From an uncultured Anaerolineaceae bacterium (lineage in GTDB: Bacteria > Chloroflexota > Anaerolineae > Anaerolineales > UBA4823), in contig CAZVRZ010000061.1 of the NCBI GenBank assembly GCA_964629965.1, forward strand, positions 1 to 31,465: DNA of 31,465 nt. The letters run 5' to 3'. The position numbers and the translations under genes are program-made. Positions 178 through 26,176 of the stretch are shown one piece after another. The notes below the pieces were generated by a model that saw only the letters and a list, made by a program, of their open reading frames with translations, had not been told where the DNA came from and ran no database searches. Each line of letters begins with the position of its first letter. The stretch's first letter is position 1.

Positions 178-1566
178 ATGACTACCCAATTAATCCATCA
201 CGCGCAGTGTTTGGTAACCATGGATTGCCATCGCCGGGAGATTCCCGACGGTGGCGTTTTTATCCGCGATGGCTTTATCGAGCAGGTTGGTGCGAGCCCT
301 GAGCTGCCTGGAGTTGCGGACGAGATCTTGGATCTGTCCGGGCACGTGGTTTTGCCGGGCCTGGTCAATACACACCATCACTTTTATCAAACACTTACCC
401 GGGCAGTGCCTGCCGCTCAAAACGCCAATCTTTTTAACTGGCTGAAAACCTTATACCCTATTTGGGCCAGGTTAAGACCGGAAGACATCTTCGTTTCTAC
501 GCAGATCGCCCTGGCAGAAATGGCGCTTTCTGGCTGCACCACGGCTTCTGACCATTTGTATATTTATCCCAACGGTTCTCGGCTGGATGATGAGATCGAA
601 GCAGGGCGCGCCATGGGAATGCGCCTGCATGCCTCGCGTGGTTCGATGAGCCTGGGCGAGAGCCAGGGCGGGCTGCCGCCAGACGCGGTGGTTGAGAGCG
701 AAGCATTCATTCTCAAAGATTCCCAGCGCTTGATCGAAACGTACCACGATCCAAACCCGGGCGCAATGACCCAGATCGTGTTGGCGCCGTGTTCGCCTTT
801 TAGTGTCACTGCGCAGTTAATGCGCGCCAGTGCTTCTCTGGCGCGCGAGTATGGCGTACATCTCCATACTCACCTGGCAGAGACGCAAGATGAAGAAGTA
901 TTTTGCGAACAGAAATTCGGTTACCGTCCGGCGGCCTACATGGATGTGTTGAATTGGACCGGCTGCGATGTGTGGTTTGCCCACTCGGTTTATGCGAATA
1001 AGGAAGAGATTGCCTTATATGCCAGGACGGGCTGCGGTGTGGCGCATTGCCCTGCTTCAAACATGCGCCTGGCTTCGGGGATCGCTCCAATCCAGGATAT
1101 GTTATTGGCAGGTGTGAAAGTGGGTTTGGGCGTGGATGGTTCAGCCAGCAACGATGGTTCTAACCTGTTGGAAGAGACTCGCCTGGCTATGTTGGTCGCC
1201 CGCCTGCGCTCCGGTTTGTCGGGTGCGTCCTTGTCTGGTTCGGATGCATCTGCCCTGATGACAGCCCGCCAGGCCCTGGAGATTGCCACGCTCGGGGGAG
1301 CGGCAGTCCTGGGCCGCCAGGATATCGGTTCGTTGGAACCTGGCAAATGTGCGGATCTGTGTGCATTTCGCCTGGATCAGATCGAATATGCCGGCGCCCT
1401 GCATGATCCTGTGGCGGCATTGGTCTTTTGTGCGCCTGCGCGGGCAGCCTATACGATGGTGGGGGGAAGGTTTGTTGTGCGAGAAGGGCAGATCACCACC
1501 ATCGATCTTCCGGTTATGATCGAGCGTCACAACCGGGCTGCCAGGAGATTGGTCGCCGGAGAGTAA
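178..1566 (+). CDS. Metal-dependent amidohydrolase, COG0402 family (SsnA / 8-oxoguanine deaminase / AtzB-like chlorohydrolase-like)
   Basis: 462-aa ORF. N-terminal HxH metal-binding motif (LVNTHHHFYQTL), later HTHLAE and a GVDGSASND Asp motif typical of cytosine/guanine-deaminase-type amidohydrolases. Sits in a nucleobase-catabolism gene context. Confidence 0.75.
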   Translation: MTTQLIHHAQCLVTMDCHRREIPDGGVFIRDGFIEQVGASPELPGVADEILDLSGHVVLPGLVNTHHHFYQTLTRAVPAAQNANLFNWLKTLYPIWARLRPEDIFVSTQIALAEMALSGCTTASDHLYIYPNGSRLDDEIEAGRAMGMRLHASRGSMSLGESQGGLPPDAVVESEAFILKDSQRLIETYHDPNPGAMTQIVLAPCSPFSVTAQLMRASASLAREYGVHLHTHLAETQDEEVFCEQKFGYRPAAYMDVLNWTGCDVWFAHSVYANKEEIALYARTGCGVAHCPASNMRLASGIAPIQDMLLAGVKVGLGVDGSASNDGSNLLEETRLAMLVARLRSGLSGASLSGSDASALMTARQALEIATLGGAAVLGRQDIGSLEPGKCADLCAFRLDQIEYAGALHDPVAALVFCAPARAAYTMVGGRFVVREGQITTIDLPVMIERHNRAARRLVAGE

Positions 1567-1601
1567 GCGTAGAGGCTGGAGATATAAGGAAGGATTGGAT
1601 A

Positions 1602-3404: not shown

Positions 3405-4138
3405 CAACGGCAAAAACACCCATCGCGTATAAGCTTTATGAAAATTTACGGCGTATGATCGCAGGACTGGAAACAGGCCAACGATTACCATCTGAGCCAG
3501 AACTGGCGCGCAAGTTAGGAGTTTCCCGGGCCACGCTGCGGGAGGCCATGCGCACATTTGAAACGCAAGGCGTGATCTACCGGCGCCAGGGCTCGGGGAC
3601 ATTTGTCTCGCGGCCGCCCCAGGTGATCCAGAGCGGCCTGGAGATGCTGGAAAGCATCGAGAGGTTGGCAGAACGGATTGGATTGCCGGTTTCCTTGGGA
3701 GAGAATATGGTCTCGCCGGACAATGCCAGCGAGGATGATGCTTTGGCTTTGGGCTGCCAGCCTGGCGATAAAGTGCTGCGGGTGTCGCGGGTCATCCTGG
3801 CGGAAGGGCATCCGGCGGCATACTTGATCGATGTTTTGCCCGGAGACGTTTTGGCTCCTGCCGAGTTGGAGAAGGGTTACAAAGGTTCGGTTTTAGATAT
3901 TATCCTGAAGCGCGGCTCGCCGGTATTGAGCTCCTCACGCTGCGAGATCAAAGCAACAACCGCCTCGCCGGACATTGCTCGGGCGATGGGAATCCAGCGC
4001 GGCGATGTGTTGCTGTGCTTTGTGGCATACCTGTACACCATTGAGGGGCGCGTGGTAGATTACTCTTACAGCTATTTCTTGCCGGGACATTTTCGTTTTC
4101 ATGTTGTCCGGCGAATTGAAACCGGCTATTCCGGTTGA
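3401..4138 (+). CDS. GntR family transcriptional regulator, HutC subfamily (wHTH + UTRA effector domain)
   Basis: N-terminal winged-HTH signature (RLPSEPELARKLGVSRATLREAMRTFETQGVIYRRQGSGTFV), ~245 aa with a C-terminal UTRA-like domain. Its ATG overlaps the stop of the upstream gene (ATGA coupling). Confidence 0.8.
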   Translation: MTTAKTPIAYKLYENLRRMIAGLETGQRLPSEPELARKLGVSRATLREAMRTFETQGVIYRRQGSGTFVSRPPQVIQSGLEMLESIERLAERIGLPVSLGENMVSPDNASEDDALALGCQPGDKVLRVSRVILAEGHPAAYLIDVLPGDVLAPAELEKGYKGSVLDIILKRGSPVLSSSRCEIKATTASPDIARAMGIQRGDVLLCFVAYLYTIEGRVVDYSYSYFLPGHFRFHVVRRIETGYSG

Positions 4139-4169
4139 TTGGTGAAGTGTTTGATGACTGAGTGGATTC

Positions 4170-4200
4170 CAGGGATTAATGATCCCTGTTCTCTAATTTC
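4170..4200 (+). terminator. Hairpin CAGGGAT-TAATG-ATCCCTG followed by a T-rich tract (TTCTCTAATTTC): possible intrinsic terminator or attenuator between the regulator gene and the carbamoyltransferase genes
   Basis: Perfect 7-bp stem with a 5-nt loop read from the sequence. The T-tract is imperfect and the stem short, so termination strength is uncertain. Confidence 0.35.
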
Positions 4201-4235
4201 AAAATCATGTAGTTTCAAACTTGGAGGATCAATTT

Positions 4236-5186
4236 ATGCGTAGTTTTATGGGACGTGATATTCTGTCGTTGAAAGAATTTGGTAGAGAAGATTACTATCG
4301 GGTGTTCGAAGTGGCAGACGACCTGGCGCCGATCGCCCGCAACCGCCGGAACAGCGACTTGTTGAAAGATAAGACCCTGGTTACCGCTTTTTATCAGCCC
4401 AGCACCCGCACCCGCCTGGCGCACGAGGCTGCCATGCATCGTTTGGGAGGGCATGTGCTGGGCTTTTCGGATGCCAAGATGACGCGCGCCGGCGATTTTT
4501 ACCAGGAATCGATCAAAGATACGGTGCGTATGTTGGAATTCTATGGCGATGTCTTGGTGATGCGCCATTTTCAGCAAGGAGCGCCCCATGAAGCGGCGCG
4601 TTGGTGCAGTATCCCGGTGATCAATGCCGGCGACGGTTGGGGAGAGCATCCCACCCAGGTACTGACGGATATGTACACAATCCTCAATGAGAAGGGCGGG
4701 CTGGATGGACTGAATTTCTTGTTGATTGGTGATATGCGCATGCGCACCATGCATAGTATCTCTTATGCCATGACCCAATTTGATATTAATGCGTTTTATG
4801 TGGCTCCTCCCGATATGCGCCTGACGGATGACTTCAAGCAGGAGCTCCGCTCGCTGAACCTGAATTTCAAGGAAATCGAGCATGTCGAAGAGGCCATTGC
4901 CGAGGCAGACGTCATCTATATGGAACCGGTGGTGCAGCCCGATTACACCAAATCCCGCGATGAGCGCACAGGGTCAGAAGGCCAGACTCCCGCGAATTAC
5001 AAGGTTACGAAAGAACTGCTGCGAAAAGCACGCCAGGATGCCATTGTGCTGCATTCACTGCCGCGCATGGACGAGCTGCCTGCGGAAGTAGATGACACCC
5101 GCCACCAGCGTTACTGGATCGAGGCGTTTAACGGCGTTGTGGTCCGCATGGCTTTATTGGCTCTGGTCTTAGGGGCGGTTGAGTGA
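4236..5186 (+). CDS. Carbamoyltransferase, aspartate-carbamoyltransferase-like (PyrB-like paralog; substrate uncertain)
   Basis: Start is ATG 4236 with GGAGGA 6 nt upstream. The ORF track's 4221 is an in-frame upstream TTG. STRTR carbamoyl-phosphate motif, HPTQ motif and a C-terminal HSLPR (ATCase-type HxLP) motif. N-terminus DILSLKEFGREDYYRVFEVADDL resembles PyrB. Confidence 0.8.
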   Translation: MRSFMGRDILSLKEFGREDYYRVFEVADDLAPIARNRRNSDLLKDKTLVTAFYQPSTRTRLAHEAAMHRLGGHVLGFSDAKMTRAGDFYQESIKDTVRMLEFYGDVLVMRHFQQGAPHEAARWCSIPVINAGDGWGEHPTQVLTDMYTILNEKGGLDGLNFLLIGDMRMRTMHSISYAMTQFDINAFYVAPPDMRLTDDFKQELRSLNLNFKEIEHVEEAIAEADVIYMEPVVQPDYTKSRDERTGSEGQTPANYKVTKELLRKARQDAIVLHSLPRMDELPAEVDDTRHQRYWIEAFNGVVVRMALLALVLGAVE

Positions 5187-5218
5187 GATGCTCACTATAG
5201 TTTTTCAAGGAGAAAACG

Positions 5219-6208
5219 ATGCAAACAGACCTTCGTAATCGAGATTTGATCGGCGACCTTGACTTTTCGAAAGAAGAAGTTGAAACGGTTTTGGAGGTGG
5301 CCTTTGACCTGAAGCGCAAGCGGGCCTTGGGCGAACCGCATGCTTATTTACGCGACAAGGTGCTGGCGATGTTGTTCTTCTTTAGCAGCACCCGCACGCG
5401 CGGCTCGTTCGAAGCGGGCATGGCGCAATTGGGCGGGCACGCGGCCTTTATCGAAAGCAAAACTACTCAGATTGCACATGGCGACACGCCGAAGGAAATC
5501 GGCGAGATCTTTGGACGGTATTACGATGGTATTGCCATCCGCCACTGCGATTGGGGCGTGGGCAATGGCTACCTGAACGCGGTTGCCAGGGCGGCACGGG
5601 TGCCGGTGCTCAATATGCAATGTGATATCTATCACCCTTTCCAATGCCTGGCTGACTTGATGACGATCATTGAGAAGAAGGGCCGCGATTTGCGGCGGAA
5701 AAAGATGGTTGTATCGTGGGCGTATGCGGCCTCGTACCAGAAGCCCATGTCGGTGCCGCAGAGCCTGATCCTGCAAATGCCGCGCTTTGGTCTGGATGTA
5801 GTGTTGGCGCACCCGCTCGAATTCCGCCTAATGCCTGACATTATGGACCAGGCCCGCGAGCAAGCGCGCAAGTACGGTACGGGCTTTGAAGTGATCTCGG
5901 ATCCGGATGGTATGGAAAAAGCTTTTAAGGATGCCGATATCGTTTATGCCAAGTCCTGGGGCGCGATGGTACATACGCCCGACTCGGATGAAGGCGCCAG
6001 GATCATCAAGAAATATGAAAGCTGGATCACAGATGAGCGCAAAATGGCCGCGGCGAAAACAGATGCTATTTACATGCACCCGCTGCCGGCGGATCGCAAC
6101 ATTGAAGTAACCGATGCAGTGATCGACGGGCCTCATTCTGTGGTCTATGATGAAGCTGAGAATCGTATGCACGCTCAAAAAGCTGTCATGGCTTTGACCA
6201 TGCGCTAA
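5219..6208 (+). CDS. Carbamoyltransferase, OTCase-like fold with atypical motifs (HPFQ, HPLP instead of HCLP); unknown specificity
   Basis: AAGGAG sits 8 nt upstream of ATG 5219. SSTRTRGSFE carbamoyl-phosphate motif, HPFQCLADL and C-terminal MHPLPADR. The N-terminal DLIGDLDFSKEEVETVLEVAFDLKRKRA resembles OTC/PTC-type enzymes, but the second-substrate motif is non-canonical. Confidence 0.8.
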   Translation: MQTDLRNRDLIGDLDFSKEEVETVLEVAFDLKRKRALGEPHAYLRDKVLAMLFFFSSTRTRGSFEAGMAQLGGHAAFIESKTTQIAHGDTPKEIGEIFGRYYDGIAIRHCDWGVGNGYLNAVARAARVPVLNMQCDIYHPFQCLADLMTIIEKKGRDLRRKKMVVSWAYAASYQKPMSVPQSLILQMPRFGLDVVLAHPLEFRLMPDIMDQAREQARKYGTGFEVISDPDGMEKAFKDADIVYAKSWGAMVHTPDSDEGARIIKKYESWITDERKMAAAKTDAIYMHPLPADRNIEVTDAVIDGPHSVVYDEAENRMHAQKAVMALTMR

Positions 6209-6219
6209 AGGAGTGAAAT

Positions 6220-7185
6220 ATGTCCGAACAGGCGCGTAAATTTGCGGTAGTGGCTATCGGTGGCAATTCTTTGATCAAGGATAAGCAGCACCAGACGGTG
6301 GAAGATCAATACACGGCTTCTAAAGAAACCACATTTTACATCGCGGATATGATCGAAGCCGGCTGGGATGTTGCTGTCACCCATGGGAATGGCCCACAGG
6401 TGGGTTTTATCCTGCGGCGATCAGAGATTGCTTACCGGGTAGAGGGGATGCACGAAATCCCCCTGGATGTTTGCGGTGCGGACAGCCAGGGAGCGATTGG
6501 TTATGCCTTGCAACAAACCCTGCAGAACGAGCTTTACCGGCGGGGCATCAAGAAAAATGTGGCGACGGTCATAACCCAGGTATTGGTAGATCGAGATGAT
6601 CCGGCATTTAAGAACCCCACCAAACCGATCGGCGGCTTTATGGACCAGGCCGAGGCGCAGCGCCGTGCCAAGGAAATGGATTGGGCGGTCGTTGAAGACG
6701 CCGGCCGCGGCTGGCGGCGTGTGGTGGCCTCTCCGCAGCCCAAAGAAGTCGTTGAGCTGGATACGGTGAAAGCTTTGCTGCAGAGCGGCGTGGTGGCAAT
6801 TGCCGCCGGCGGTGGGGGCATCCCGGTCATTGACGTCGGCGAGGGCGAGTATCGTGGCACGGCTGCGGTGATCGATAAAGACTTTGCCAGTTCCCTGCTG
6901 GCCCAGGCGATCAGAGCCGATCTTTTCCTCATCTCCACTGCGGTGGAGAAGGTGGCGATCCATTTTGGATCGCCACAGCAGCAGTGGTTGGATCGAATCA
7001 CACTGGCGCAAGCTAAGCAGTACCTGGCAGAGGGCATCCATTTTGCCAAGGGTTCCATGGCGCCGAAGATCGAAGCGATCATCTGGTTCTTGGAAGCAGG
7101 TGGAAAGCAAGCCTTGATCACCAATCCCCCCAACATCAGCAAAGCATTGCGCGGCGAGACGGGTACCTGGATCGTTAATGAGTAG
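6220..7185 (+). CDS. arcC: Carbamate kinase
   Basis: AAGGAG RBS. VVAIGGNSL N-terminal motif and THGNGPQVG motif characteristic of carbamate kinase (amino-acid kinase family). 321 aa. Confidence 0.85.
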   Translation: MSEQARKFAVVAIGGNSLIKDKQHQTVEDQYTASKETTFYIADMIEAGWDVAVTHGNGPQVGFILRRSEIAYRVEGMHEIPLDVCGADSQGAIGYALQQTLQNELYRRGIKKNVATVITQVLVDRDDPAFKNPTKPIGGFMDQAEAQRRAKEMDWAVVEDAGRGWRRVVASPQPKEVVELDTVKALLQSGVVAIAAGGGGIPVIDVGEGEYRGTAAVIDKDFASSLLAQAIRADLFLISTAVEKVAIHFGSPQQQWLDRITLAQAKQYLAEGIHFAKGSMAPKIEAIIWFLEAGGKQALITNPPNISKALRGETGTWIVNE

Positions 7186-7242
7186 AGGTAATTATTTTAT
7201 AAGTAGTATAGACAATCTCGTCCGAAGGGTGTATCCTTGTAC

Positions 7243-7373
7243 ATTGTGCATGGTAGATGCTGTGTGATTGGCCGAAAATTATTTAACTAAATAGATGCGT
7301 AAAATCGGCCAATCACTTGAGCAAACCGCTATGTTGGCTGTAAAGTTGTTCAAAAACATTTAGCGATTTGCTA
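7243..7373. repeat. Copy 1 of a ~125-bp structured repeat: two tandem hairpins (GTGATTGGCCGA-29nt-TCGGCCAATCAC; AGCAAACCGCTA-30nt-TAGCGATTTGCT)
   Basis: ~92% identical to 24016-24143. The perfect 12-bp inverted repeat was read directly. Located in the 340-bp intergenic region upstream of the BMP/ABC transporter operon. Confidence 0.8.
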
Positions 7374-7524
7374 ACATGTATGGAGCGCTATAGAGAGGCT
7401 CTGCCCCGGAGGCGTTTTCACGAAAGGAGGTGCCCTCAACCTGTTTGCCGTTTTGCATTGATGGAGAATGCTAGAAATGTCTGGTTTGAATCGACCAATT
7501 TAGATCATCTTGATGGAGGAGTAA

Positions 7525-8715
7525 ATGCGTACCAAAATATTGACAGTGCTGCTAATTCTGGCGATTGCCCTTTCGGGCTGCAGCCAAAAGCCCGAGGAAG
7601 TGGGCGGTTTTCAGATCCCGAATGTGGAAAAAGGCAAATTCAACGTTGGCATGGTTCTGATCGGCCCCCATGATGATGGCGGTTGGTCTCAGTCCCACTA
7701 TGAGGGACTCGAGTATGTTGCCAAGAATGTGCCGAACGTACATGTGGCGTATATCGAGAATGTGCCCGAAGGCGCTGACTCGGAGCAGGTTTTCCGCGCT
7801 CTCTCGCGGAAAGGTTTTGACCTGATCATTGGTACATCTTTCGGTTTTGGCGACCCGATGGAAATCGTGGCTGGTGAATTCCCGAAGAGCATGTATGTCC
7901 ACATTAGCGGCATCAAGTCCAATTCAACCAACTTCGGCAACCTGTTCGGCGCCATGGAAGTGATGAAGTATGCGGCTGGGATGCTGGCCGGGGCGCGCGC
8001 TAAGATGGATGGCAACCCCAAGCTGGGTTATATGGCGACCTTCCCCATTCCGGAGGAACTGCGCCTTGGGAATGCCATTGCCCTGGGTATGAAGAAGACC
8101 TGCCCGGAGTGCACCATGGATGTGCGCTGGATCAGTACCTGGCATGATCCCGTGATTGAAAAAGAAGCGGCTGCTTCCCTCTTCGATGCCGGTGCTCAGG
8201 TGGTTTTCACCGGCGCAGATACCCCGGCGGTTGCCGATGTGGCTCAGGAAAAGGGTAAATGGGGCGTGACCTATGACTGGTATGGTTCCTGCAAGGTGGA
8301 TCGCTGCTTGACCGTTCCTTATTGGAATTGGGGCCCGATCTATGCCAAGATCACCGAACAGGTGGCTGCGGGCACCTATAAGCCAGGTTGGGATTATTTC
8401 GATGCGGAAACAGGCGCACTGGGCCTCTACGGCTTTATGGAAGGCCAGTCGCTGCCCATGGGCGTCAAGGAATTACCCGCTGAGGTTGTGGATGAAGTGC
8501 GCTCTATCATTGACAAATCTCTCAAGGGCCAATTCACGCGCTTCGATGTGTTTACCGGCCCGATCATGGATAATCAGGGCAATACCATTGTGCCTGCTGG
8601 CTCGAAGATGGACCAGGCTGACCTGGATCAATTCCCGGAATATGGTTTGGGTTGTAAGTACTGCATGAAGTGGTGGGCAGAAGGCATTACTGCTGAACTG
8701 CCAAAGACCGATTAG
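7525..8715 (+). CDS. BMP family (PnrA/Med-like) ABC transporter substrate-binding lipoprotein, likely a purine-nucleoside-binding protein
   Basis: Lipoprotein signal MRTKILTVLLILAIALSGCSQ (lipobox LSGC). GGAGGAG RBS. ~396 aa periplasmic binding-protein fold with BMP-family hallmarks. Followed by a duplicated-ATPase ABC protein and two permeases, the classic nucleoside-uptake arrangement. Confidence 0.75.
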   Translation: MRTKILTVLLILAIALSGCSQKPEEVGGFQIPNVEKGKFNVGMVLIGPHDDGGWSQSHYEGLEYVAKNVPNVHVAYIENVPEGADSEQVFRALSRKGFDLIIGTSFGFGDPMEIVAGEFPKSMYVHISGIKSNSTNFGNLFGAMEVMKYAAGMLAGARAKMDGNPKLGYMATFPIPEELRLGNAIALGMKKTCPECTMDVRWISTWHDPVIEKEAAASLFDAGAQVVFTGADTPAVADVAQEKGKWGVTYDWYGSCKVDRCLTVPYWNWGPIYAKITEQVAAGTYKPGWDYFDAETGALGLYGFMEGQSLPMGVKELPAEVVDEVRSIIDKSLKGQFTRFDVFTGPIMDNQGNTIVPAGSKMDQADLDQFPEYGLGCKYCMKWWAEGITAELPKTD

Positions 8716-16254: not shown

Positions 16255-16965
16255 TTGAGGAAAAATTTGGTTCCCACCGCCTCGTTGGGGAGTGCGGCCA
16301 TCTTCCTGGTTGGATTGAGCCTGGCTTGTGGCATTGTCCCTCAGGCGCTTTTGCCTAATTCCACACCGACCATCACAACCGTATTCACCGGTACTGCCTT
16401 GCCCACCTCGACTGCCATGATCATGGCTGCGGTCATGCCCACCTTGACTCTCACCCAGGCGAACACGCCTTCGCCAACATTTACCGACACGACCGCGCCG
16501 CCCACGGCAACTGCTACGAAGACTGCCACCGTGGCGCTGACGCCTCCTCCCGAAGGTTTCCTGGCGTGGGATATCTATCCGGACAACGGCGCCCTGACCG
16601 AACAATTGTTTGCGCATACGCAGCTTGCCCTGGCGATGGGTCTGATGCCTTATGTTGAATTTACTGCCACCTGGTGCCCGGCCTGCCAGGCTATTGAAAG
16701 AAGCCTGTCTGATGGGAATGAATTGATGGTGGATGCTTGCCAGGGCACTTATATCATCCGGGTGGATGTGGATGCCTGGGATTGGAACGAGCGGGAAAAG
16801 GCTGGCTTCGAAGTGGAATTTATTCCCATCTTCTACTTGCTCGATCGAGAAGGCCAGCCAACCGGAAACACGATCGGGGGCGACGCCTGGGGTGACAATA
16901 TCCCTGCGAACATGGCCCCACCTTTAAAGGAATTCTTTCAGGCCCATGGTGTGATTGGCCGATAG
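16255..16965 (+). CDS. Secreted or membrane-anchored thioredoxin-fold protein (WCPAC active site) with a Thr/Pro-rich linker
   Basis: N-terminal signal/anchor, a ~70-aa low-complexity T/P/A-rich region, then FTATWCPACQAIE, a CxxC thioredoxin-like motif. TTG start with AGAGGGA upstream. Confidence 0.6.
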   Translation: MRKNLVPTASLGSAAIFLVGLSLACGIVPQALLPNSTPTITTVFTGTALPTSTAMIMAAVMPTLTLTQANTPSPTFTDTTAPPTATATKTATVALTPPPEGFLAWDIYPDNGALTEQLFAHTQLALAMGLMPYVEFTATWCPACQAIERSLSDGNELMVDACQGTYIIRVDVDAWDWNEREKAGFEVEFIPIFYLLDREGQPTGNTIGGDAWGDNIPANMAPPLKEFFQAHGVIGR

Positions 16966-16987
16966 TCATTAAACGAAAAGGAGATCT

Positions 16988-18451
16988 ATGAACATTGATT
17001 TGACCGTTAATTCAAGTCGCCGCTTGCGATCGATCCAACGTGCTCGCGAGCGAGGGATTGTCATCCCTACTTTTGCCCAGATGAAGAACCCGGCATTGAT
17101 CCCGGCGCGGGTGAAAGAAGCGCTCTCCAAGATTGGGCTGTGGGATGTTCACCCGCTGAACCTTTTCCGCATTACCTGGCACAACCAGCCGCAGGAGATG
17201 GGCGGGGGGTTTGGCGGCTTGAACTACCTGGAATTGCCTTCCAGCCTGACGGGGACGCCTGCCCGCATCCTGGTTTTGGTCGGTAAATGGTTCCCCACCG
17301 GTGCTCACAAAGTTGGCGCTGCCTTTGGCTGCCTGGTGCCGCGCCTGGTGACGGGGCAGTTCGATCCCACCACGCAGAAAGCCGTCTGGCCTTCCACCGG
17401 CAATTACTGCCGGGGTGGCGCGTACGATTCGGCGCTGCTGGCATGCGAATCCATTGCGATCCTGCCCGAGGGCATGAGCCGCGAACGCTTTGAGTGGTTA
17501 TCAAAGATTTCGGGCGAAGTGATCGCCACGCCGGGCAGCGAGTCGAATGTCAAAGAGATCTTCGATAAGTGTTGGGAACTGCGCCAGTCGGGCCAGGATC
17601 TGATGATCTTCAACCAGTTCGAAGAGTTTGGCAATTACCTGTGGCATTACGAAGTCACCGGGCACGCCATGGAAGAGTTGTTGGCCCAGGTGATGGGGCC
17701 GAAGGATGCTTACCGCGGTCTGGCTTCGGCGACCGGGTCGGCCGGTACGATTGCCAGCGGCGACTATATGAAGCAGTTGTTCCCTGGTTCTAAGATTGCT
17801 GCCAGCGAGGCCGTGCAATGCCCTACCTTGTTGGAGAATGGTTTTGGCGCCCACCGTATCGAGGGGATTGGCGATAAGCACGTTCCCTGGATCCACAACG
17901 TCAAGAACACCGATATGATCGTCGCGATCGACGATGAAGCCGTAGTGAGCCTGGCCCGCCTGTTCAATGAGCCAGTTGGGCATGCATACCTGGCAGGCCA
18001 GGGTGTTGCGCCGGAATTGGTCGCTCAGTTGGATCTGTTGGGCTTCTCGGGCATCTCCAATGTTTTGACTGCTATCAAGATGGCGAAGTATTACGAGTGG
18101 AACGAGCATGACATTGTTCTGACGGTGCTGACCGATTCGATGGAGCTGTATGGCAGTCGCTTGCTGGAAATGCGCCAGGAATATGGCCAGTATACAGAAC
18201 GCGACGCGGCGGCCCACTTTGCCCGTTTCCTTCAGGGGCAGTCAACGGACCACTTGTTAGAGTTATCGTATGCTGATCGCCGGCGAGTGCATAACCTGAA
18301 GTATTTCACCTGGGTTGAGCAGCAAGGCAAAACATACCAGGAGATCCAGGCGCAGTGGTACGAGCCTGATTATTGGGAGAGCGTGCAGCGAATGACTCCT
18401 GAAATTGATGCATTGATCGAAGTGTTCAATGCTGATGTTGGCCTGGGCTGA
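16988..18451 (+). CDS. PLP-dependent enzyme, fold type II (tryptophan-synthase-beta/cysteine-synthase superfamily), unusually long, function unknown
   Basis: AAGGAG RBS. PTGAHKVGAAFG (PLP-lysine region, analogous to PTGSFKDRGA), STGNYCRGGAYDSA (analogous to SSGNHG), a glycine-rich loop GSAGTIASG, and a ~150-aa extra C-terminal region. Confidence 0.55.
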   Translation: MNIDLTVNSSRRLRSIQRARERGIVIPTFAQMKNPALIPARVKEALSKIGLWDVHPLNLFRITWHNQPQEMGGGFGGLNYLELPSSLTGTPARILVLVGKWFPTGAHKVGAAFGCLVPRLVTGQFDPTTQKAVWPSTGNYCRGGAYDSALLACESIAILPEGMSRERFEWLSKISGEVIATPGSESNVKEIFDKCWELRQSGQDLMIFNQFEEFGNYLWHYEVTGHAMEELLAQVMGPKDAYRGLASATGSAGTIASGDYMKQLFPGSKIAASEAVQCPTLLENGFGAHRIEGIGDKHVPWIHNVKNTDMIVAIDDEAVVSLARLFNEPVGHAYLAGQGVAPELVAQLDLLGFSGISNVLTAIKMAKYYEWNEHDIVLTVLTDSMELYGSRLLEMRQEYGQYTERDAAAHFARFLQGQSTDHLLELSYADRRRVHNLKYFTWVEQQGKTYQEIQAQWYEPDYWESVQRMTPEIDALIEVFNADVGLG

Positions 18452-21400
18452 AAACTGGATGGATCGATTAACTACAGAGCTATTTGATATTACTCGCCTG
18501 GAACGATACGTGGGCCAGGCTGTTTTTGAGCGCGGCCAGACTTACTACCAGCAAAAGCGCGTCGAGATCGATTATGTAGATCCGAAGTATGCCAGTTGCA
18601 CGGTGGTAGGCCGCAGTGGGGTTTATGATGTTCGCATCGAATTAGATCGCGGCACTTTGCTGTTCTATTGCGATTGCCCGTTCGCTGCGGATGGACGGAT
18701 TTGCAAGCATATCGTGGCCTCTTTCATAGCGGTCAAGAAGTCTTTGCAGACGAGCCACGCCACCCGCTGGCAGACCCATCTCTCCAAAGTGATCCAGTCT
18801 GCGCAGAGTGATGCGACCAAGTCCTCCGCCAATGTTATAGATCATGGTAGTACAGATCACCGTTTGCAGTACCTGTTGTTCTTTAGCTTGCAGCACGAAA
18901 GCGGATTCACCTGGAAGCTGACGCCATACCAGGTGTTAGCCAGCGCGTTACCTGCCGATGTGCGCAGTACGCTTGTTCCAGGGCGGGTCACGCCCGAACA
19001 GATCGAACAGGCCCTGAGCTATTCGGCGTCAGTGCGGCAGCCGGCTGGCCGCCTTGATTCGCGCGGCTGTATCAACGCCGGCGATGCCGTGGTCAACATG
19101 GCCAACCTGTTGATCACGCGCTCGTATGTGTACTACACCTTCATCCCCTTGGGAGATTTCTTGACTTTCTTGCAGGGCGGCCAGGCCTACATTTACCTGG
19201 GTGATGAGCGCAAGCCTTTGAAAACGCGTTTGCAGATGGCGCCAGAAAAAGGCCGCTTGAAGATCAACATGCACCGCGAGCCAGATGGGGTACACCTGAC
19301 GGCCAGCCTGGTTGCGGGCGGCCTAAGCATAGCGATCCAGCAGGAAGATGGCGGGGAGAGCGCCCGGGGCGGGGAAAGCGCCCGGGGCGGGAATGGCGCC
19401 CGGGACAGTGAGAATGCCCAGGTTGGAGAAAACCTCCACGAGGGGGATGCTGCCCGCATGCAAATCCTGTCGGTGTCGCCGCTGTGGGTGCTGGCGGATC
19501 GCTGGCTGGTGCAGCTAGATGAAGAGAATGTGACGGCTGTTTTTCGCACCTTCATGGATGTGCCTGAGCTGATAATCCCTGCCGCAGAGCAGGAAGAATT
19601 CCTGGAACAGTACTACTTGCCTTTGGCCTTGAGCGCCGACCTGGAAGGCGACGCGGTTTCCTGGGAAAGCGTGCAAGACGCCAAGCCGGTGGGACAGTTG
19701 TATCTAAGCGAAAATCGCAAAGGCGAGCTGCAGGTTCAGCTTCGCTTTAATTATGCCGGGCAGGTGGTCAGTTATGAGCCGCAGCTGCCCGTGGAAAGCA
19801 TACAGCGCTTGCCTGGAGAGTGGAAGCTGGTGCGCATCCAGCGCGATCCTACCCTGGAGCAGCTAATGTTCCAGAACCTGGCCTCGCACGAATTTGGTTT
19901 AAAGCGTTCTACAAGCCCTTCTTCGCAAAATCAACTGACACTGCGGGCGCGGATTGAGCTGATAGATTTTCTGATGAAATATGTTCCTCGCCTGGTAAAA
20001 GCCGGTTTTGAGATCTTTGGCGAAGAACAGTTGAAGACCGCGCGGGTCAATCGTCACCAGCCGACGATCTCGTTCCACATTGCTACAAACATCGATTGGT
20101 TCGATGTGAAAGCGGCGGTGAACTTTGGCGAGATCGAAGTCTCGCTCAAGGAAATTCGCCGCGCTTTACGCAAAAAGGAACGCTATATCAAGCTGGCGGA
20201 TGGCACGATCGGCGAGATACCGTCAGATTGGCTGAACCGTTACAAACATTTGTTTGCCCTGGGCGAGGAGACCGGCGACAGCTTGCGCCTCTCCAATTAC
20301 CATGTCACCTTGCTGGATCAGCTCCTGTCGGATGCCGATCGTGAGCGGGCGGGCGATGAGTTTCAAAAACGCCTGGACCGGCTGCGTAATTTCGATGGCA
20401 TCACCCCCAAACCGCTGCCGGCGGGCTTCTTGGGCGAGCTGCGTCCTTACCAAAAATCGGGCTTCGATTGGCTCCACTTTTTGCATGAGTTTAAGTTCGG
20501 CGGTTGCCTGGCGGATGACATGGGCCTGGGTAAAACGGTGCAGGTGCTGGTGTTCCTGCTCTCTCTGCGCGAGCAGCAGCATTCCCCAAAAGCCGACCTG
20601 ATTGTGCTGCCGCGCTCGCTGCTGGTCAACTGGCAGCGTGAAACGGCCCGCTTCACGCCATCACTGCGCGTGATGGAGTATTTTGGCAACTTGCGAGATA
20701 AGGACACTTCTATTTTTGACCAGTACGACCTGGTGGTCACCACGTACGGCACCATGCTGCGGGATGTGGAACTGCTGCGGGAATATCCATTTCACTATGT
20801 TGTGCTGGATGAGTCCCAGGCGATCAAAAATCCAGTGGCGCAAACCACCAAAGCGGCGCGTTTGCTGCGCTCGGAGCACCGCCTGGCGCTGACGGGTACA
20901 CCGGTGGAAAACTCAACCTTGGAGCTCTGGTCGCAGTTCTCGTTCCTGAACTCCGGTTTGTTGGGCAACCTGGAATATTTCCGCGACGAGTTCACCAACC
21001 CGATCGAACGAAGAGGCAGCGAGCAGCAGGCGCAATTCTTGCGAAAGTTAGTGTACCCTTTCATCTTGCGGCGCACGAAAGCTCAGGTGGCTCCCGACTT
21101 GCCGCCGCGCACTGAGCGGGTGGTTTACAGTGACATGGAAACGGCTCAGCGCAAGATGTATAACCGCACCCGGGATTATTATCGCGGGATGTTGTTGGGC
21201 ATGCTGGAAAACCAGGGCCTGAACGATTCTCGCATGAAGGTCCTGGAAGGCTTGCTGCGCCTGCGCCAGATATGCAATCACCCCGCGCTGGTAGAACGTG
21301 AGTTCCGCGGCGATTCGGCCAAGTTCGATCTGCTGATCGAAACACTGGAAACGCTGAGAGCGGAAGGGCACAAAGCTCTGGTGTTTTCGCAGTTCGTCGA

Positions 21401-21821
21401 GATGCTCAAGCTGGTGCGCCGCGCGCTGGATCTGCGCCAGATACCTTACCTGTACCTGGATGGGCAAACCAATGACCGGCAGGAACGCGTAGATCAGTTC
21501 CAGAGTGACAACGGCGTGCCTTTCTTTTTGATCAGCTTGCGAGCGGGCGGGCAGGGGTTGAACCTGACGGCGGCGGATTACGTGATCTTGATCGACCCCT
21601 GGTGGAACCCGGCGGTTGAAATGCAGGCCGCGGACCGCACGCATCGCATCGGGCAGGAAAAACCGGTATTTATTTATAAACTGGTGGCGCGCGATACGAT
21701 CGAAGAGAAGATCTTGCAGCTTCAGGAACGCAAGAAGAACCTGGTCGATCAACTGATCACAACCGAGAGCAGCTTCCTCAAATCTCTGACGGTAGATGAT
21801 GTGAAGGTCTTGTTCAGCTAG
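18429..21821 (+). CDS. SWIM zinc-finger / SNF2-family DNA-dependent ATPase (helicase-like)
   Basis: SWIM CxC-x9-CxH (YCDCPFAADGRICKH). SNF2 motifs LADDMGLGKTVQ (I), DESQAIKN (II), LTGTPVEN (III), and HELICc with QAADRTHRIGQ (VI). 1130 aa. The start (18429, 18435 or 18459 ATG) is uncertain. Confidence 0.85.
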   Translation: MLMLAWAENWMDRLTTELFDITRLERYVGQAVFERGQTYYQQKRVEIDYVDPKYASCTVVGRSGVYDVRIELDRGTLLFYCDCPFAADGRICKHIVASFIAVKKSLQTSHATRWQTHLSKVIQSAQSDATKSSANVIDHGSTDHRLQYLLFFSLQHESGFTWKLTPYQVLASALPADVRSTLVPGRVTPEQIEQALSYSASVRQPAGRLDSRGCINAGDAVVNMANLLITRSYVYYTFIPLGDFLTFLQGGQAYIYLGDERKPLKTRLQMAPEKGRLKINMHREPDGVHLTASLVAGGLSIAIQQEDGGESARGGESARGGNGARDSENAQVGENLHEGDAARMQILSVSPLWVLADRWLVQLDEENVTAVFRTFMDVPELIIPAAEQEEFLEQYYLPLALSADLEGDAVSWESVQDAKPVGQLYLSENRKGELQVQLRFNYAGQVVSYEPQLPVESIQRLPGEWKLVRIQRDPTLEQLMFQNLASHEFGLKRSTSPSSQNQLTLRARIELIDFLMKYVPRLVKAGFEIFGEEQLKTARVNRHQPTISFHIATNIDWFDVKAAVNFGEIEVSLKEIRRALRKKERYIKLADGTIGEIPSDWLNRYKHLFALGEETGDSLRLSNYHVTLLDQLLSDADRERAGDEFQKRLDRLRNFDGITPKPLPAGFLGELRPYQKSGFDWLHFLHEFKFGGCLADDMGLGKTVQVLVFLLSLREQQHSPKADLIVLPRSLLVNWQRETARFTPSLRVMEYFGNLRDKDTSIFDQYDLVVTTYGTMLRDVELLREYPFHYVVLDESQAIKNPVAQTTKAARLLRSEHRLALTGTPVENSTLELWSQFSFLNSGLLGNLEYFRDEFTNPIERRGSEQQAQFLRKLVYPFILRRTKAQVAPDLPPRTERVVYSDMETAQRKMYNRTRDYYRGMLLGMLENQGLNDSRMKVLEGLLRLRQICNHPALVEREFRGDSAKFDLLIETLETLRAEGHKALVFSQFVEMLKLVRRALDLRQIPYLYLDGQTNDRQERVDQFQSDNGVPFFLISLRAGGQGLNLTAADYVILIDPWWNPAVEMQAADRTHRIGQEKPVFIYKLVARDTIEEKILQLQERKKNLVDQLITTESSFLKSLTVDDVKVLFS
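19353..19406 (+). repeat. Three tandem 18-bp repeats (GGGGARAGCGCCCGGGRC) inside the SNF2 gene, encoding GESARG-GESARG-GNGARD in the inter-domain linker
   Basis: Read directly: ggggagagcgcccggggc / ggggaaagcgcccggggc / gggaatggcgcccgggac. Confidence 0.8.
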
Positions 21822-22367: not shown

Positions 22368-23885
22368 TCAAAGATGAGCGATCGTCGTCTTGAACTTAAC
22401 GCCGTCTTCCTGGCACAGCGCCTTGACCAGCCGGCGCCCAGACATCACCCCGGTCGGCAGTCCGCCGCCCGGCTCGACCCACTGCCCGCACATGTAAAAG
22501 TGTGCCAGCCCGGGCAGCCTCTGGCTCATGGGTTTCATCACGGTCTGGGCGTTGTCAGGTGTGATCAGCCAGCCCTCAAAACTGCCCTGCCAGTTGCCGG
22601 TGAACTGCTCGAAGGTCAACGGCGTAGCCACATCTACCATTTCTACCTGCTGCGAGATACCGGGGAAGCGCTGGTCCAGGGCATCTACCACGATGCGGGC
22701 GATCTGATCCTTTTTCTCTTCGTAAGAGGCCTGATCCTGCGCCAGCTCTTTCCAGTAATCATATTTGCTGGGAAACATCACCACCAGGCTGGTTTTTCCG
22801 GGCGGCGCCAGGGTGGGGTCCTGGTTGAAAATATGCACGGATAAGGTTTTACGGACGGCGTCGCCGATCTCCACCGGCTCTTTCAATGGGTAACTGATAC
22901 CGGACACCGTTTGGGGCTGGTCGGAGAAATCCCGATTCACTCCCACGCCCACGAAGATCAGCGGCGGGAAGATCGGCCATTTTTCGTATGGCTCGCGCAC
23001 CTTCTCGTCGGCATACTTGCCTTCGAGCATCTTGAAGATGGTGGTATGGCCGTCCGCGGCAGAGATCACGCGCCCGGCGCGGCGCTCGCTGCTATCCGTT
23101 AGGACGATACCTACGGCCTTATCATCTTCCACCAGGATCTTTTCCACTTTGCTCTTGTAGTTGATCTTGCCGCCCAGGTCGCGGTAGCGCTTTTCCAATG
23201 CCTTGGACATGGGCATTGAGCCGCCGATGGGATAACCGGCGTTCTTTGTATGGAAGTAGGCAAAGGTGAACAGCATGAAGAAGATGGAAAACTCGCTGAA
23301 CCACATCTCTTCGAATGCCCGGCGGAGGAGGGGATCCTTGAAGCGCGCCGCGAAGTGGCCTCCAGTTTCTTTTAACCATTCCTGGATCTTCTTACCTTTG
23401 GTCGCCATCACCACAACCAACTTCAAGCTCTTCACCAGGCGCGTGGGCAACGGATCGGACTCGCCGGGTGCGTCGAAGCGAACACAGGTGCGAATACCCT
23501 GAATGAATTCGCGCGTTACCTCGGCATCTTGCGGTGAAAACTCAAGCAAATGTTTTTCTAACTTGTCCACATCGGTATACATGATCAAGGTGCGCCCATC
23601 CGCGTCCTCGAAGCGGGCATATTCGTCCAGGTTCACGAATTCACGCTCCTGTGCAATGCCCACCTCCTGCCAGAAACGGTACATGGCGCTGCTGGGCGAT
23701 GAGCCAACCAACCAGTGGATACAGCCATCGATGGTATATCCCCGGCGCTTCCAGGAAGTGCACAACCCGCCTGGAAGATCTCCCATTTCGAAGATCTCGG
23801 TCTGATATCCGTTCATCTGGGCATAGATGCCTGCCGAAAGCCCGGCGAAGCCCGCGCCGATGATGGCGATCGATTGGTTGGTCAT
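22368..23885 (-). CDS. FAD-dependent oxidoreductase, phytoene desaturase (CrtI/CrtN/CrtD) family
   Basis: N-terminal Rossmann dinucleotide motif IAIIGAGFAGLSAG...EIFE...GGLCTS typical of CrtI-family amine-oxidase-fold desaturases. 505 aa. Confidence 0.7.
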   Translation of the reverse strand: MTNQSIAIIGAGFAGLSAGIYAQMNGYQTEIFEMGDLPGGLCTSWKRRGYTIDGCIHWLVGSSPSSAMYRFWQEVGIAQEREFVNLDEYARFEDADGRTLIMYTDVDKLEKHLLEFSPQDAEVTREFIQGIRTCVRFDAPGESDPLPTRLVKSLKLVVVMATKGKKIQEWLKETGGHFAARFKDPLLRRAFEEMWFSEFSIFFMLFTFAYFHTKNAGYPIGGSMPMSKALEKRYRDLGGKINYKSKVEKILVEDDKAVGIVLTDSSERRAGRVISAADGHTTIFKMLEGKYADEKVREPYEKWPIFPPLIFVGVGVNRDFSDQPQTVSGISYPLKEPVEIGDAVRKTLSVHIFNQDPTLAPPGKTSLVVMFPSKYDYWKELAQDQASYEEKKDQIARIVVDALDQRFPGISQQVEMVDVATPLTFEQFTGNWQGSFEGWLITPDNAQTVMKPMSQRLPGLAHFYMCGQWVEPGGGLPTGVMSGRRLVKALCQEDGVKFKTTIAHL

Positions 23886-24015
23886 AGTATCCTCCTGTGG
23901 TCAGTAACTCTACTGATTATACATCAAGCGATTGGTTTGCCCGAATCAGAAAAATTCCATAGATAATATGGGGGATGCAAAGCGCCGATAGATTTAGAAT
24001 AGATATCAATCACCA

Positions 24016-24143
24016 TGGTGCATGGTGCTATGTGATTGGCCGAAAGTTATTTAACTAAATGGATGCGTAAAATCGGCCAATCACTTGAGCAAACTGCTAT
24101 GTTGGCTGTAAAGTTGTTCAAAATACTTTTAGCGGTTTGCTTA
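24016..24143. repeat. Copy 2 of the ~125-bp twin-hairpin repeat (GTGATTGGCCGA-29nt-TCGGCCAATCAC; AGCAAACTGCTA-30nt-TAGCGGTTTGCT)
   Basis: ~92% identical to 7243-7373. In the divergent intergenic region between the CrtI-like gene and the flotillin gene, ending ~30 nt before the flotillin RBS. Confidence 0.8.
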
Positions 24144-24175
24144 GAAAGATCAATCGCATCACAAAGGAGTTTTGT

Positions 24176-26176
24176 ATGGACGGTGTATTGGCAGTTCTCT
24201 TGTTCCTTCTGGTTGGGCTGGTAGGTTTGGCAGTGCTGTTCCTGCTGGCTGGGGTGCGCTTTATCCCCAACAACCGCGTCGGCATTGTTGAAAAGCGTTT
24301 TTCTGGTAAAGGATCGGTAAAGTCGGGCCTGATTGCCCTGAACGGCGAGGCCGGTTACCAGCCAGGTCTACTGCGCGGTGGTCTGCATTTCCTGATCCCG
24401 ATCCAATATGCGGTGCATATTGCCCCATTGGTCACGATCACCCAGGGCAAGATCGGTTATATCTTCGCCCGCGACGGCGCGGCGCTTTCGCCGGACCAGG
24501 TGTTGGCTTCCAATGCACACACCACTGATTTTCAAGATGTGGCTGCCTTCATAAAGGCCGGCGGCCAGCGCGGCCCGCAGCGCCGGCTGCTGCGTGAAGG
24601 TACCTATGCCATCAACCTGGTCCAGTTCGTGGTGATCACGGAGGAAAAGGTTTACAGCCTGCCCCTCAGCCGTGAGGATGATGACATCGTCCGGCGCATG
24701 GCCAGCGTGATTGCAGATCGCGAGGGATTCCGCCCAGTGGTCATTAAGGATGTGGATGATAAGATCGGCATAGTGACGGTACACGATGGCCCTTCGCTGC
24801 CCCAGGGCGAGATCATTGCTCGGATTGTCGGCGATGATCCTTCTACGACGAATGATTATCACAACAACTTCCAGGATCCAGATCGCTTCCTGCATGCCGG
24901 TGGGATGCGCGGCCGCCAGTTGCAAACCCTGGTGGAAGGCACGTATTACATCAATCGCCTGTTTGCCACGGTGGAGATGATCGCCAAGACGATCATCGAG
25001 GTGGGCATGGTGGGCGTGGTGGTTTCCTACACAGGCGAGATCGGCGCAGACCTGTCTGGCTCAGAATATCGCCATGGCGAACTGGTGCAGACGGGCAGAC
25101 GCGGCGTTTGGAGTGAACCACTTCTGCCCGGCAAGTATGCCTTCAATACCTATGCAGGTAAGGTGGTGCAGGTCCCAACCACCAATGTCATCCTGAAATG
25201 GATCCATGCTGAAGTTGGCTCGCACTATTACGATGAGAACCTGACCGAGGTTTCATTGATCACCAAGGATGCCTTTGAGCCCTCTCTGCCGCTTTCGGTT
25301 GTTATCCATATTGACTACCAGAAGGCTCCGCTGGTGATCCAGCGCTTTGGCGATATCAAACGCCTGGTCGAGCAGACGCTCGACCCGATGGTGGCGGCGT
25401 ACTTCAAGAATGTTGGTCAAACTCGCACGCTGATCCAGCTCTTGCAAGAGCGCAGCGCCATCCAGCAGCAGGCCAGCCAGGAAATGAAGGAAAAGTTTAA
25501 ACACTATAACTTGGAGCTTGAAGAGGTGTTGATTGGTACGCCGACCTCGACCAAGGCTGATCAGCAGATCGAGGCCATCCTGACCCAACTCCGCACGCGC
25601 CAGATCGCGGCCGAACAGGTAGAAACTTACAGCCGGCAGCAGAAAGCTGCAGTGCAAGAACGCGAGCTGCGTGAAGCGGAGGCGCGTGCTCAACAGCAGC
25701 AGTTCATCACCGAATCGGAACTGAGTATTACGGTTCAGAGTAACCAGGGTAAGGCTGAGTACCAGCGTGCTTTGCAGCAGGCTTCGCAGATCCGCGCCCT
25801 GGCCGAGGCTGAAGCGGAAAAGATTGCCCGGATTGGTATTGCCCAGGCAGTCGCTACCGAAGAACAGGTCAAGGCCTATGGCGGACCGCAATATCAGGTC
25901 ACCCAGCAGGTGCTGAACCGCTTTGCCGAAGCCATCCAACAGTCACGTGTCGATGTGGTGCCGCGCGTGGTGGTGGGTGGGCAAGGCGGTGAGGGCAGCT
26001 CTACCAACAGCGTGATGGAAGGGCTGTTAACCCTGCTGCTTTCTGATCGCATGGGTGTACAGATCAACCAGTCAGGCGCCGAGCGCAGTCCTGAAGTGGA
26101 AGAAATGCGCGCCCAGATCCGCGAAAGCTTGAAGAAGAGAGACGAAGGCAGCTCGAGCCCGGCTGTGGCTTCGTAA
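24176..26176 (+). CDS. Flotillin-like SPFH/band-7 family protein (FloT/YqiK-like)
   Basis: AAAGGAG 6 nt upstream of ATG 24176. N-terminal TM helix, then RFIPNNRVGIVEKRF (the SPFH domain start typical of YqiK/flotillin), and a long C-terminal coiled-coil with EA-repeat-rich segments (ALAEAEAEKIARIGIAQA). Confidence 0.8.
   Translation: MDGVLAVLLFLLVGLVGLAVLFLLAGVRFIPNNRVGIVEKRFSGKGSVKSGLIALNGEAGYQPGLLRGGLHFLIPIQYAVHIAPLVTITQGKIGYIFARDGAALSPDQVLASNAHTTDFQDVAAFIKAGGQRGPQRRLLREGTYAINLVQFVVITEEKVYSLPLSREDDDIVRRMASVIADREGFRPVVIKDVDDKIGIVTVHDGPSLPQGEIIARIVGDDPSTTNDYHNNFQDPDRFLHAGGMRGRQLQTLVEGTYYINRLFATVEMIAKTIIEVGMVGVVVSYTGEIGADLSGSEYRHGELVQTGRRGVWSEPLLPGKYAFNTYAGKVVQVPTTNVILKWIHAEVGSHYYDENLTEVSLITKDAFEPSLPLSVVIHIDYQKAPLVIQRFGDIKRLVEQTLDPMVAAYFKNVGQTRTLIQLLQERSAIQQQASQEMKEKFKHYNLELEEVLIGTPTSTKADQQIEAILTQLRTRQIAAEQVETYSRQQKAAVQERELREAEARAQQQQFITESELSITVQSNQGKAEYQRALQQASQIRALAEAEAEKIARIGIAQAVATEEQVKAYGGPQYQVTQQVLNRFAEAIQQSRVDVVPRVVVGGQGGEGSSTNSVMEGLLTLLLSDRMGVQINQSGAERSPEVEEMRAQIRESLKKRDEGSSSPAVAS

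Follow-up and report, generated by a model that had tools for sequence, protein, structure and literature searches.

We found that copy 2 of a twin-hairpin repeat, located beside a flotillin gene in a contig from an uncultured Anaerolineaceae bacterium, is most probably one insertion of a non-autonomous MITE family of ~110 to 120 bp that occurs in Chloroflexota, mainly in Anaerolineae-type genomes. Comparison of the copies shows that the whole twin is the unit of insertion, that it carries an AT-rich direct duplication of 2 to 3 bp, that it is dispersed in either orientation, and that it decays to truncated relics. We concluded that the hairpins of copy 2 are part of the way in which the element's repeats are built and do not act as an RNA switch for flotillin. 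The coordinates are collected in Table 1; the window is the whole stretch of DNA that was analyzed (31,465 nucleotides), which makes up a complete NCBI contig.

Copies of the element in the window

The window contains a repeat of ~118 nt at 7258-7375 and 24026-24143, with 96% identity between the copies. Copies 1 and 2 agree even in their variable loop sequence, which points to a recent duplication within this genome. A covariance model matched copy 2 at 24024-24085(-) and 24088-24148(+). We found that hairpin 2 is homologous to hairpin 1 read as its reverse complement, so that the element consists of two related units set back to back. Each unit runs from the inner arm through ~15 variable nt and a conserved block (TTGTAAAAT-TACTTT) to the outer arm, and the loops measure 29 to 31 nt across the family. 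The arms of stem 1 (GTGATTGGCCGA/TCGGCCAATCAC) pair perfectly over 12 of 12 bp in both full window copies. Those of stem 2 (AGCAAACTGCTA/TAGCGGTTTGCT) have the window form AGCAAAC(C/T)GCTA/TAGCG(A/G)TTTGCT. The family-level stem of hairpin 2 consists of the inner 11 pairs, and the single wobble of stem 2 in copy 2 is at pair 8 (T24095.G24134). The right terminal inverted repeat is made up of the last ~14 nt of the hairpin 2 loop and the 3' arm.

Table 1. Features of the window copies, their surroundings, and the family-level flavours of hairpin 2
Feature	Position (strand)	Description
Probable MITE, copy 2	24031..24141 (+)	111 bp; terminus TG-TGATTGG to TTGC-T; from the family-wide target-site-duplication analysis and the filled/empty alignment
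Left target-site duplication, copy 2	24029..24030	TA; copy 2 reads TA/TG/TGATTGG ... TTGCT/TA
Right target-site duplication, copy 2	24142..24143	TA
Hairpin 1, copy 2	24032..24084 (+)	arms 24032-24043 / 24073-24084; 29-nt AT-rich loop
Hairpin 1 loop, first ~14 nt		AAGTTATTTAACTA; conserved block, part of the left terminal inverted repeat
Hairpin 2, copy 2	24088..24141 (+)	arms 24088-24099 / 24130-24141
Left extension	24003..24030 (+)	common to copy 1, partly to the truncated copy (CATGGTGCATGGT..GCTATG); outside the family-wide terminus
Amine-oxidase/CrtI-like gene	22368-23885 (-)	divergent from the SPFH/flotillin gene
Flotillin RBS	24164-24169 (+)	AAGGAG; ~21 nt 3' of the element
SPFH/Band_7 (flotillin) gene	24176-26176 (+)	ATG 24176
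Probable MITE, copy 1	7263..7372 (+)	between a carbamate-kinase-like gene (6220-7185) and a Bmp/PnrA binding-protein gene (7525-8715)
Truncated third copy	16943..16982 (+); 16950-16982 without extension	CCATGG extension remnant, terminus TG, hairpin 1 5' arm, ~20 nt of loop 1
Hairpin 2 flavour		arms AGCAAACCGCC / GGCGGTTTGC
Hairpin 2 flavour		arms AGCAATTCGCC / GGCGAATTGC
Hairpin 2 flavour		arms AGCAATTCGTCG / CGACGAATTGC

The first-pass annotation of this DNA placed copy 2 between the divergently transcribed CrtI-like and flotillin genes, with the flotillin RBS ~20 nt past the end of the element; the gene coordinates and the measured distance agree with this. Measured from the start of the CrtI-like gene, the distance is 143 nt to the left target-site duplication (24029) and 145 nt to the terminus of the element. 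At 21 nt from the flotillin RBS, the insertion probably falls within or beside the flotillin 5' leader or promoter. A consensus scan of the copy 2 region found no σ70-type promoter and no terminator. The closest named relatives of the SPFH protein are from Anaerolineales. An ORF within the loop had also been reported to run on for 62 codons into the flotillin start without conservation of the peptide. We found the 62 codons (24036-24224), with a TTG start that is inside the 5' arm of stem 1 and not in the loop. The copy 1 counterpart meets a stop after 8 codons, and the peptide is thus not conserved.

A 7-nt direct repeat, ATCAATC, brackets copy 2 at 24005-24011 and 24150-24156. Two Logan contigs that carry the window SPFH gene (L059 and L060) both start within the first hairpin of copy 2, at a point 105 nt upstream of the ATG, and these starts are consistent with assembly breakage at the repeat. 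Over all metagenome loci, the enrichment of copies at contig ends was weak (p about 0.07).

Copy 1 has no intact target-site duplication, and its flanks read TG and AA. Upstream of it, at 178-7185, is an apparent nucleobase-catabolism cluster with genes for an amidohydrolase, an adenine deaminase, a GntR/UTRA regulator, a carbamate-kinase-like protein, and two paralogous carbamoyltransferases (4221-5186 and 5219-6208). The ORFs at 178-1566 and 1428-3404 overlap by ~140 nt, and the second therefore probably starts later. A Bmp/PnrA ABC transporter operon lies 3' of copy 1.

A thioredoxin-like ORF (16255-16965) takes its final five sense codons and its stop codon (H G V I G R and stop) from the truncated copy, which also abuts the RBS of a PALP-enzyme gene (ATG 16988). 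This relic of the element, at 16943-16988, is now a gene end and an intercistronic junction. Apart from it, no solo arm was present in the 388 kb searched, and on these grounds we rejected solo arms as independent binding sites. A covariance-model search with filters off found no further degenerate units in the window. Elsewhere in the window, an SNF2/SWIM helicase ORF (18429-21821) contains an 18-nt unit (GGCGGGGAGAGCGCCCGG) repeated three to four times in tandem at 19350-19421; the repeat is in frame and encodes six residues per unit.

The three window copies also share 20 to 35 nt to the left of the family terminus. This extension (CATgGTGCATGGT..GCTrTG / CCATGG) occupies 7229-7262, 24003-24030, and 16943-16949 in copy 1, copy 2, and the truncated copy, respectively. 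Simple end-to-end transposition does not explain it. It could be an extension peculiar to a subfamily, the trace of a nested insertion in a different repeat, or flanking sequence that was duplicated along with the element.

Insertion hallmarks and distribution of the family

We searched species-representative genomes and metagenomes with a gapped stem 1 pattern. The genomes yielded 9 loci, mostly in Chloroflexota MAGs: four in one 'Chloroflexia' MAG (exact stem, three contigs), three in Anaerolineae/Anaerolineales MAGs, one in a MAG labelled Alphaproteobacteria, and one that is an unrelated Sphingobacteriia palindrome. The metagenomes yielded 49 loci. Overall, about 50 related copies were found in Chloroflexota MAGs and metagenomes. 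The covariance model found one extra twin and no more in ~270 kb of flanking DNA, and the copy number looks low. The twin on the contig labelled Alphaproteobacteria (L001, CAWHYZ010000004.1) and one from a Chloroflexia MAG of the same project (L008) are nearly identical, variable loops included, which points to an error in binning or labelling or to horizontal transfer. A scan of viral contigs with the left terminus gave 23 matches, each of them a chance hit in unrelated coding sequence. Searches of the literature, made with the sequence and with the type of repeat, returned no description of this element. The MITE family, which is absent from Rfam and from these literature searches, is previously uncatalogued.

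To look for target-site duplications, we set the left boundary of the element at NG-TGATTGG and the right one at TTGC-N. In 25 of 31 independent twins, the dinucleotide at positions -4 and -3 to the left of TGATTGG occurs again 0 to 2 nt past TTGC. When the flanks were permuted, the mean number of matches was 11.05 (standard deviation, 2.3), with a maximum of 21 in 20,000 permutations, and neighbouring control positions gave 4 to 15 matches. A TA on the left flank predicts a TA on the right (11/0 versus 6/15; Fisher p = 1e-4). The non-TA cases match in 15 of 21 instances, and they do so as direct and not as inverted repeats (TT, AG, GT, AA, CT, TC, and TG). Apparent offsets of two bases were all 3-bp duplications (ATA, AAT, ATT, GAA, and ACT).

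A filled and an empty version of one site were found through homologues of the protein beside the L029 copy. The filled site (L029, L067, and L040) reads ...AAAATCTT-ATA-(TGTGATTGG...GAATTGCC)-ATA-GTCGAAT..., with the element in parentheses; its left flank ends in ...AAAATCTTATA, and its right flank begins with GTCGAAT. The empty site (L066, L068, and the more distant L069) reads ...AAAATCTTATAAAGTCGAAT..., and the flanks are otherwise conserved. L067, which is filled, and L068, which is empty, were recovered from a single sample. The two forms of the site differ by the entire twin, with the cuts no more than a few bases from the feet of the hairpins. Relative to the prediction from the filled site, the empty site carries two additional A's.

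The ends of the element are imperfect inverted repeats of ~28 nt, (T/G)GTGATTGGCCGAAAGTAAnTTTACAA ... TTGTAAAnnTACTTTCGGCGAATTGC(N), with the terminus forms (T/G)GTGATTGGCCGAAAGTA and GCAAYYCGCCGAAAGTA. The left end and the reverse complement of the right end have a mean identity of ~74% in 28 twins. The conserved block lies within the aligned terminal repeats, so that what appeared to be a loop block is the inner part of each terminal inverted repeat. In addition, the outermost 11 to 12 nt of each end are repeated in inverted orientation ~30 nt inward, and each end can therefore fold as its own hairpin. The element is non-coding and shorter than ~600 bp, has inverted repeats and a target duplication, is polymorphic for insertion between close strains, and is present in dispersed copies. 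In every respect tested, this is what is expected of a MITE.

We also found that the family is modular. Hairpin 1 occurs by itself at some loci; others have three hairpins, or else an additional hairpin or a 10-nt tandem repeat between the two units. Hairpin 2 comes in at least three flavours, with both arms co-varying (Table 1). Within a flavour, identity is 84 to 97% in the arms and 64 to 88% in the block; the rest of the loop is saturated (32 to 45% identity) in two of the three flavours and reaches 71% in the third. In three loci (L012, L015, and L039), the appended third hairpin is a second unit of the hairpin 2 type but of another flavour. An unrelated extra hairpin (GAAGTTAGGCGACTAACTTC) lies between the units of L004 (750-830), and a 10-nt unit (AGCGATAGCC) is repeated three to four times in tandem between those of L055 (372-420). 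In L016, twins in the same orientation (2385-2521 and 2953-3086), ~430 nt apart, flank a small ORF at 2525-2836 (-).

Back-to-back homologous units of this kind resemble REP heterodimers, and the occurrence of one, two, or three hairpins, together with pairing that is conserved without strand bias, would also suit a REP/BIME-like palindrome moved as folded single-stranded DNA by an HUH/Y1 transposase of the RAYT or IS200 type. We consider this origin very unlikely. We know of no HUH-type element that makes a target-site duplication, and such a duplication is present in 25 of the 31 twins. Solo units give no sign of independent insertion: solo hairpin 1 units mostly have no target-site duplication and resemble truncated twins, and the truncations are visible in L030, L054, and L051. 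A tblastn search of 388 kb for a Y1-transposase ORF returned nothing below E = 1, although this was a weak test, with two unverified Y1 queries and a small sample of sequence. The family shares with REP, BIME, and REPIN sequences its inverted pairs of related hairpins, modular mosaics, intergenic location, and stems of 11 to 12 bp; it differs from them in its target duplications, its loops with a conserved block, its apparently low copy number, and the lack of a RAYT link in the 388 kb searched. REPs are defined by stems of 5 to 13 bp, loops of 2 to 20 nt, and a GTAG or CGTC tetranucleotide at the foot of the hairpin (PMC3733652). In contrast, the loops here are 29 to 31 nt long, and neither tag is present, the information content of the flanks falling to ~0.3 bit within 3 to 5 nt.

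Stem pairing and the flotillin gene

The first-pass annotation had read the stem 2 changes as the pattern expected of structural selection at the RNA level. We compared the predicted folding with that of shuffled sequences, and both window copies fold far better: the RNA z scores were -4.6 (copy 2) and -4.1 (copy 1), and the DNA z score was -6.6. Across 76 hairpin units, 97.7% of the cells hold standard pairs, and 9 of the 11 pairs have changed on both sides; none of 500 shuffles reached this. When the register was slid, pairing in the 76 units dropped to 18 to 45%. Among 28 aligned twins, 5 of the 12 stem 2 pairs covary. The stem 1 search pattern otherwise fixed the stem 1 sequence among the copies; a twin that was found by the covariance model and not by that pattern (L016, 2385-2521) has the compensatory stem 1 GGTCGA/TCGACC. 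Thus, the expectation that the stems would show covariation across copies was borne out for both of them. Covariation by itself cannot separate RNA from DNA-level repeats.

Two other folds were tried and rejected. A fold with paired outer ends and a central hairpin is 71.5% paired, is reached by 242 of 500 shuffles, and has no covariation. Pairing of the flanks into a third stem that encloses the element is no general property of the family (mean z, -0.33; p <= 0.05 in 3 of 30). The flanks are mutually complementary in L013 (9 to 10 bp) and L001 (~13 bp, with two G.U pairs), where the element may have inserted into a pre-existing palindrome.

The central observation of the annotation was a compensatory double change between the window copies, in which one stem 2 pair went from C.A to U.G. 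We found that this was a register error and that the two substitutions are in adjacent pairs. The C-to-T change is the 5' base of pair 8 (7327 versus 24095), and the A-to-G change is the 3' base of pair 7 (7366 versus 24135). Copy 1 therefore has C7326.A7366 at pair 7 and C-G at pair 8, and copy 2 has C24094-G24135 at pair 7 and T24095.G24134 (U.G) at pair 8. At pair 7, 19 of the 28 aligned twins have U-A and 8 have C-G, copy 1 being the one unpaired case; at pair 8, 27 have C-G, and copy 2 alone has U.G. The consensus of the window flavour is C-G at both pairs. Each window copy has one independent single substitution relative to the family flavour, and the C.A and U.G pairs would be independent point mutations that followed insertion. 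Each of the two changes is a wobble when read on one strand, plus for one change and minus for the other. The lowest-energy RNA fold predicted for copy 1 drops this stem 2 register. A pair-by-pair listing did place the remaining differences between the copies in loops or flanks, as had been described.

The number of wobbles also bears on the strand that is read. On the outward strand we counted 8 G.U and 14 A.C combinations, so that neither strand is favoured, although the numbers are small. Strand-independent conservation, which the annotation itself had named as the observation that would argue against an RNA-level function, is what we found.

A structured cis-regulatory RNA in the 5' leader of flotillin and other genes, with both hairpins under selection as RNA, would account for the covariation in both stems and the significantly stable fold. 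Consistently with such a role, the element is often 12 to 60 nt from a start codon, and a weak σ70-like site (TAGACA-17-TATCCT, 7209-7237) lies just 5' of copy 1, at chance level. The genes next to the copies do not fit it. The 44 adjacent proteins are mutually unrelated and belong to 61 different Pfam families, with functions that include enolase, GcvT, arginase, SDR, PNP, and MFS; we therefore rejected a regulon or shared gene theme. The genes around 35 copies are divergent in 15 cases, co-directional in 17, and convergent in 3, and in co-directional contexts the hairpin that faces the gene is either one (8 versus 10). No copy is present in ~90 kb around SPFH homologues of 82%, 85%, and 78% identity, but their gene neighbourhoods also differ, and this comparison is not a strict test of orthologous sites. 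The target-site duplications and the filled/empty polymorphism indicate arrival by insertion, and the between-copy compensation that had suggested RNA selection was a misreading of the register.

Comparison with known RNA families gave no support either. Rfam 15 had no match in the window at gathering thresholds, and at E <= 10 it returned only eukaryotic snoRNA and miRNA noise. The Chloroflexi-1 RNA motif of Rfam, reportedly described by Weinberg et al. in 2010, is said to occur in Chloroflexota and to have two hairpins. Because there is no match to E = 10 beyond the spurious ones, the element is not the Chloroflexi-1 motif. Taken together, these data make a flotillin-directed RNA regulator highly improbable, and the RNA-level role that had been assigned to copy 2 is unsupported. 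An effect of the insertion on flotillin expression, if there is any, would be a by-product; the sequence context does not indicate a selected regulatory role.

The same gene contexts could be read at the DNA level. A promoter/operator cassette would have one outward promoter in each loop, within the TTGTAAAAT..TACTTT block, bracketed by two half-sites for a protein, and a MITE may have been co-opted as such a portable promoter. The block is AT rich and has TAnnnT-like hexamers 6 to 12 nt before the outer arm, gene starts lie 12 to 60 nt beyond the arms on one or both sides, and divergent contexts are enriched (15 of 35). However, the consensus scan of the copy 2 region gave no σ70-type promoter, no -35 element occurs at a consistent spacing, and the presence of several arm flavours in one element would call for several regulators. 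Membership in the terminal inverted repeat accounts for the block more simply. We regard this cassette as most unlikely. Resemblances to σ28, σ54, CRP, HutC/GntR, and attC sites were dropped by eye, as their spacing or core motifs did not fit.

Relation to known elements and mobility

The Correia element of Neisseria (CREE/NEMIS) and the pneumococcal RUP are non-coding MITEs of ~100 to 150 bp with inverted repeats of ~26 to 28 nt. They have a very short AT-rich or TA duplication, lie between genes and near gene starts, can fold into stable hairpins as single strands or transcripts, and vary in presence and absence among related strains. The Chloroflexota element resembles them in size, lack of coding capacity, repeat length, short duplication, location, foldability, and polymorphism. 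It differs in that its ends are only ~74% alike, its duplication is 2 to 3 bp and not strictly TA, and its hosts are Chloroflexota. It also pairs locally, each terminus with an internal complement, whereas the usual MITE forms one long hairpin from end to end. Conserved local hairpins at the ends are the unusual feature of this MITE.

Termini that begin with GG or TG resemble the ends of IS5-family elements. IS30 and ISL2 are further candidates for the source of the transposase. Like the IS5 and PIF/Harbinger groups and the 'Tourist'-like MITEs, the family has duplications of 2 to 3 bp in AT-rich targets, and IS5/PIF-type elements come nearest among the known makers of such duplications. IS5 and PIF/Harbinger elements make 3-bp duplications, ISL2EU makes 2-bp duplications that are typically AT, and AT-rich targets are preferred (PMC4122938). 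The duplications of the present family are varied (TA, AT, TT, ATA, AAT, ATT, TAG, GAA, and others), in contrast to a single motif. An IS5/PIF assignment, drawn by analogy, is only a lead.

We propose that the MITE would be moved by a DDE-type transposase that acts in trans and makes staggered cuts of 2 to 3 bp; our best guess is an IS5/PIF-like or IS30-like enzyme. A very limited search turned up no autonomous element or transposase with matching ends. If the terminal repeats, loop block, and inner arms are cis-acting sites, only elements that retain them would propagate, and this would keep these parts in place; the within-flavour identities of arms, block, and remaining loop fit such selection. 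The covariation of the hairpins would then reflect co-evolution of the element's own repeats and not selection on a host RNA, either through the folding of each end or through repeated binding sites for the transposase.

Pairing of the inner arm with its own outer arm (97.7%) is far stricter than the likeness of one end to the other (~74%), which suggests that local hairpins or paired binding sites probably matter for mobility. A plain terminal-repeat model does not demand such strict matching of the arms, which leaves room for some role of folding. The end hairpins could themselves be the functional substrate, either of a transposase that recognizes a folded terminus and makes 2- to 3-bp cuts or as a domesticated, symmetrical leader/promoter cassette; we give this only a slim chance. 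To our knowledge, recognition of a folded stem-loop has not been described in combination with staggered target cuts of 2 to 3 bp for a bacterial IS family. A domesticated cassette, if true, would account for constant arms and block beside saturated loops and for the one moderately diverged orthologous pair (L029, 500-626; L040, 10689-10815). There, the element is identical at 127 of 127 positions, and the downstream 5' leader and genes are ~87% identical. Such identity may be a sign of strong constraint, as opposed to recent transfer or faulty assembly. The L040 copy lies where its contig ends, however, and recombination or an artefact of consensus assembly is a possible explanation.

The identification of copy 2 as a probable MITE insertion removes a false lead, as hairpins located 5' of the flotillin gene are not evidence for a riboregulator. 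The case also shows that adjacent single substitutions can pass for a compensatory change. The analysis defines a MITE family in the poorly studied Anaerolineae/Chloroflexota by its termini, its target duplication, and a filled and an empty site. This definition aids annotation, explains some assembly breaks, and offers a strain-level marker and a handle on the transposase responsible. The locally paired, covarying ends of the family pose a small mechanistic puzzle for the biology of transposition.
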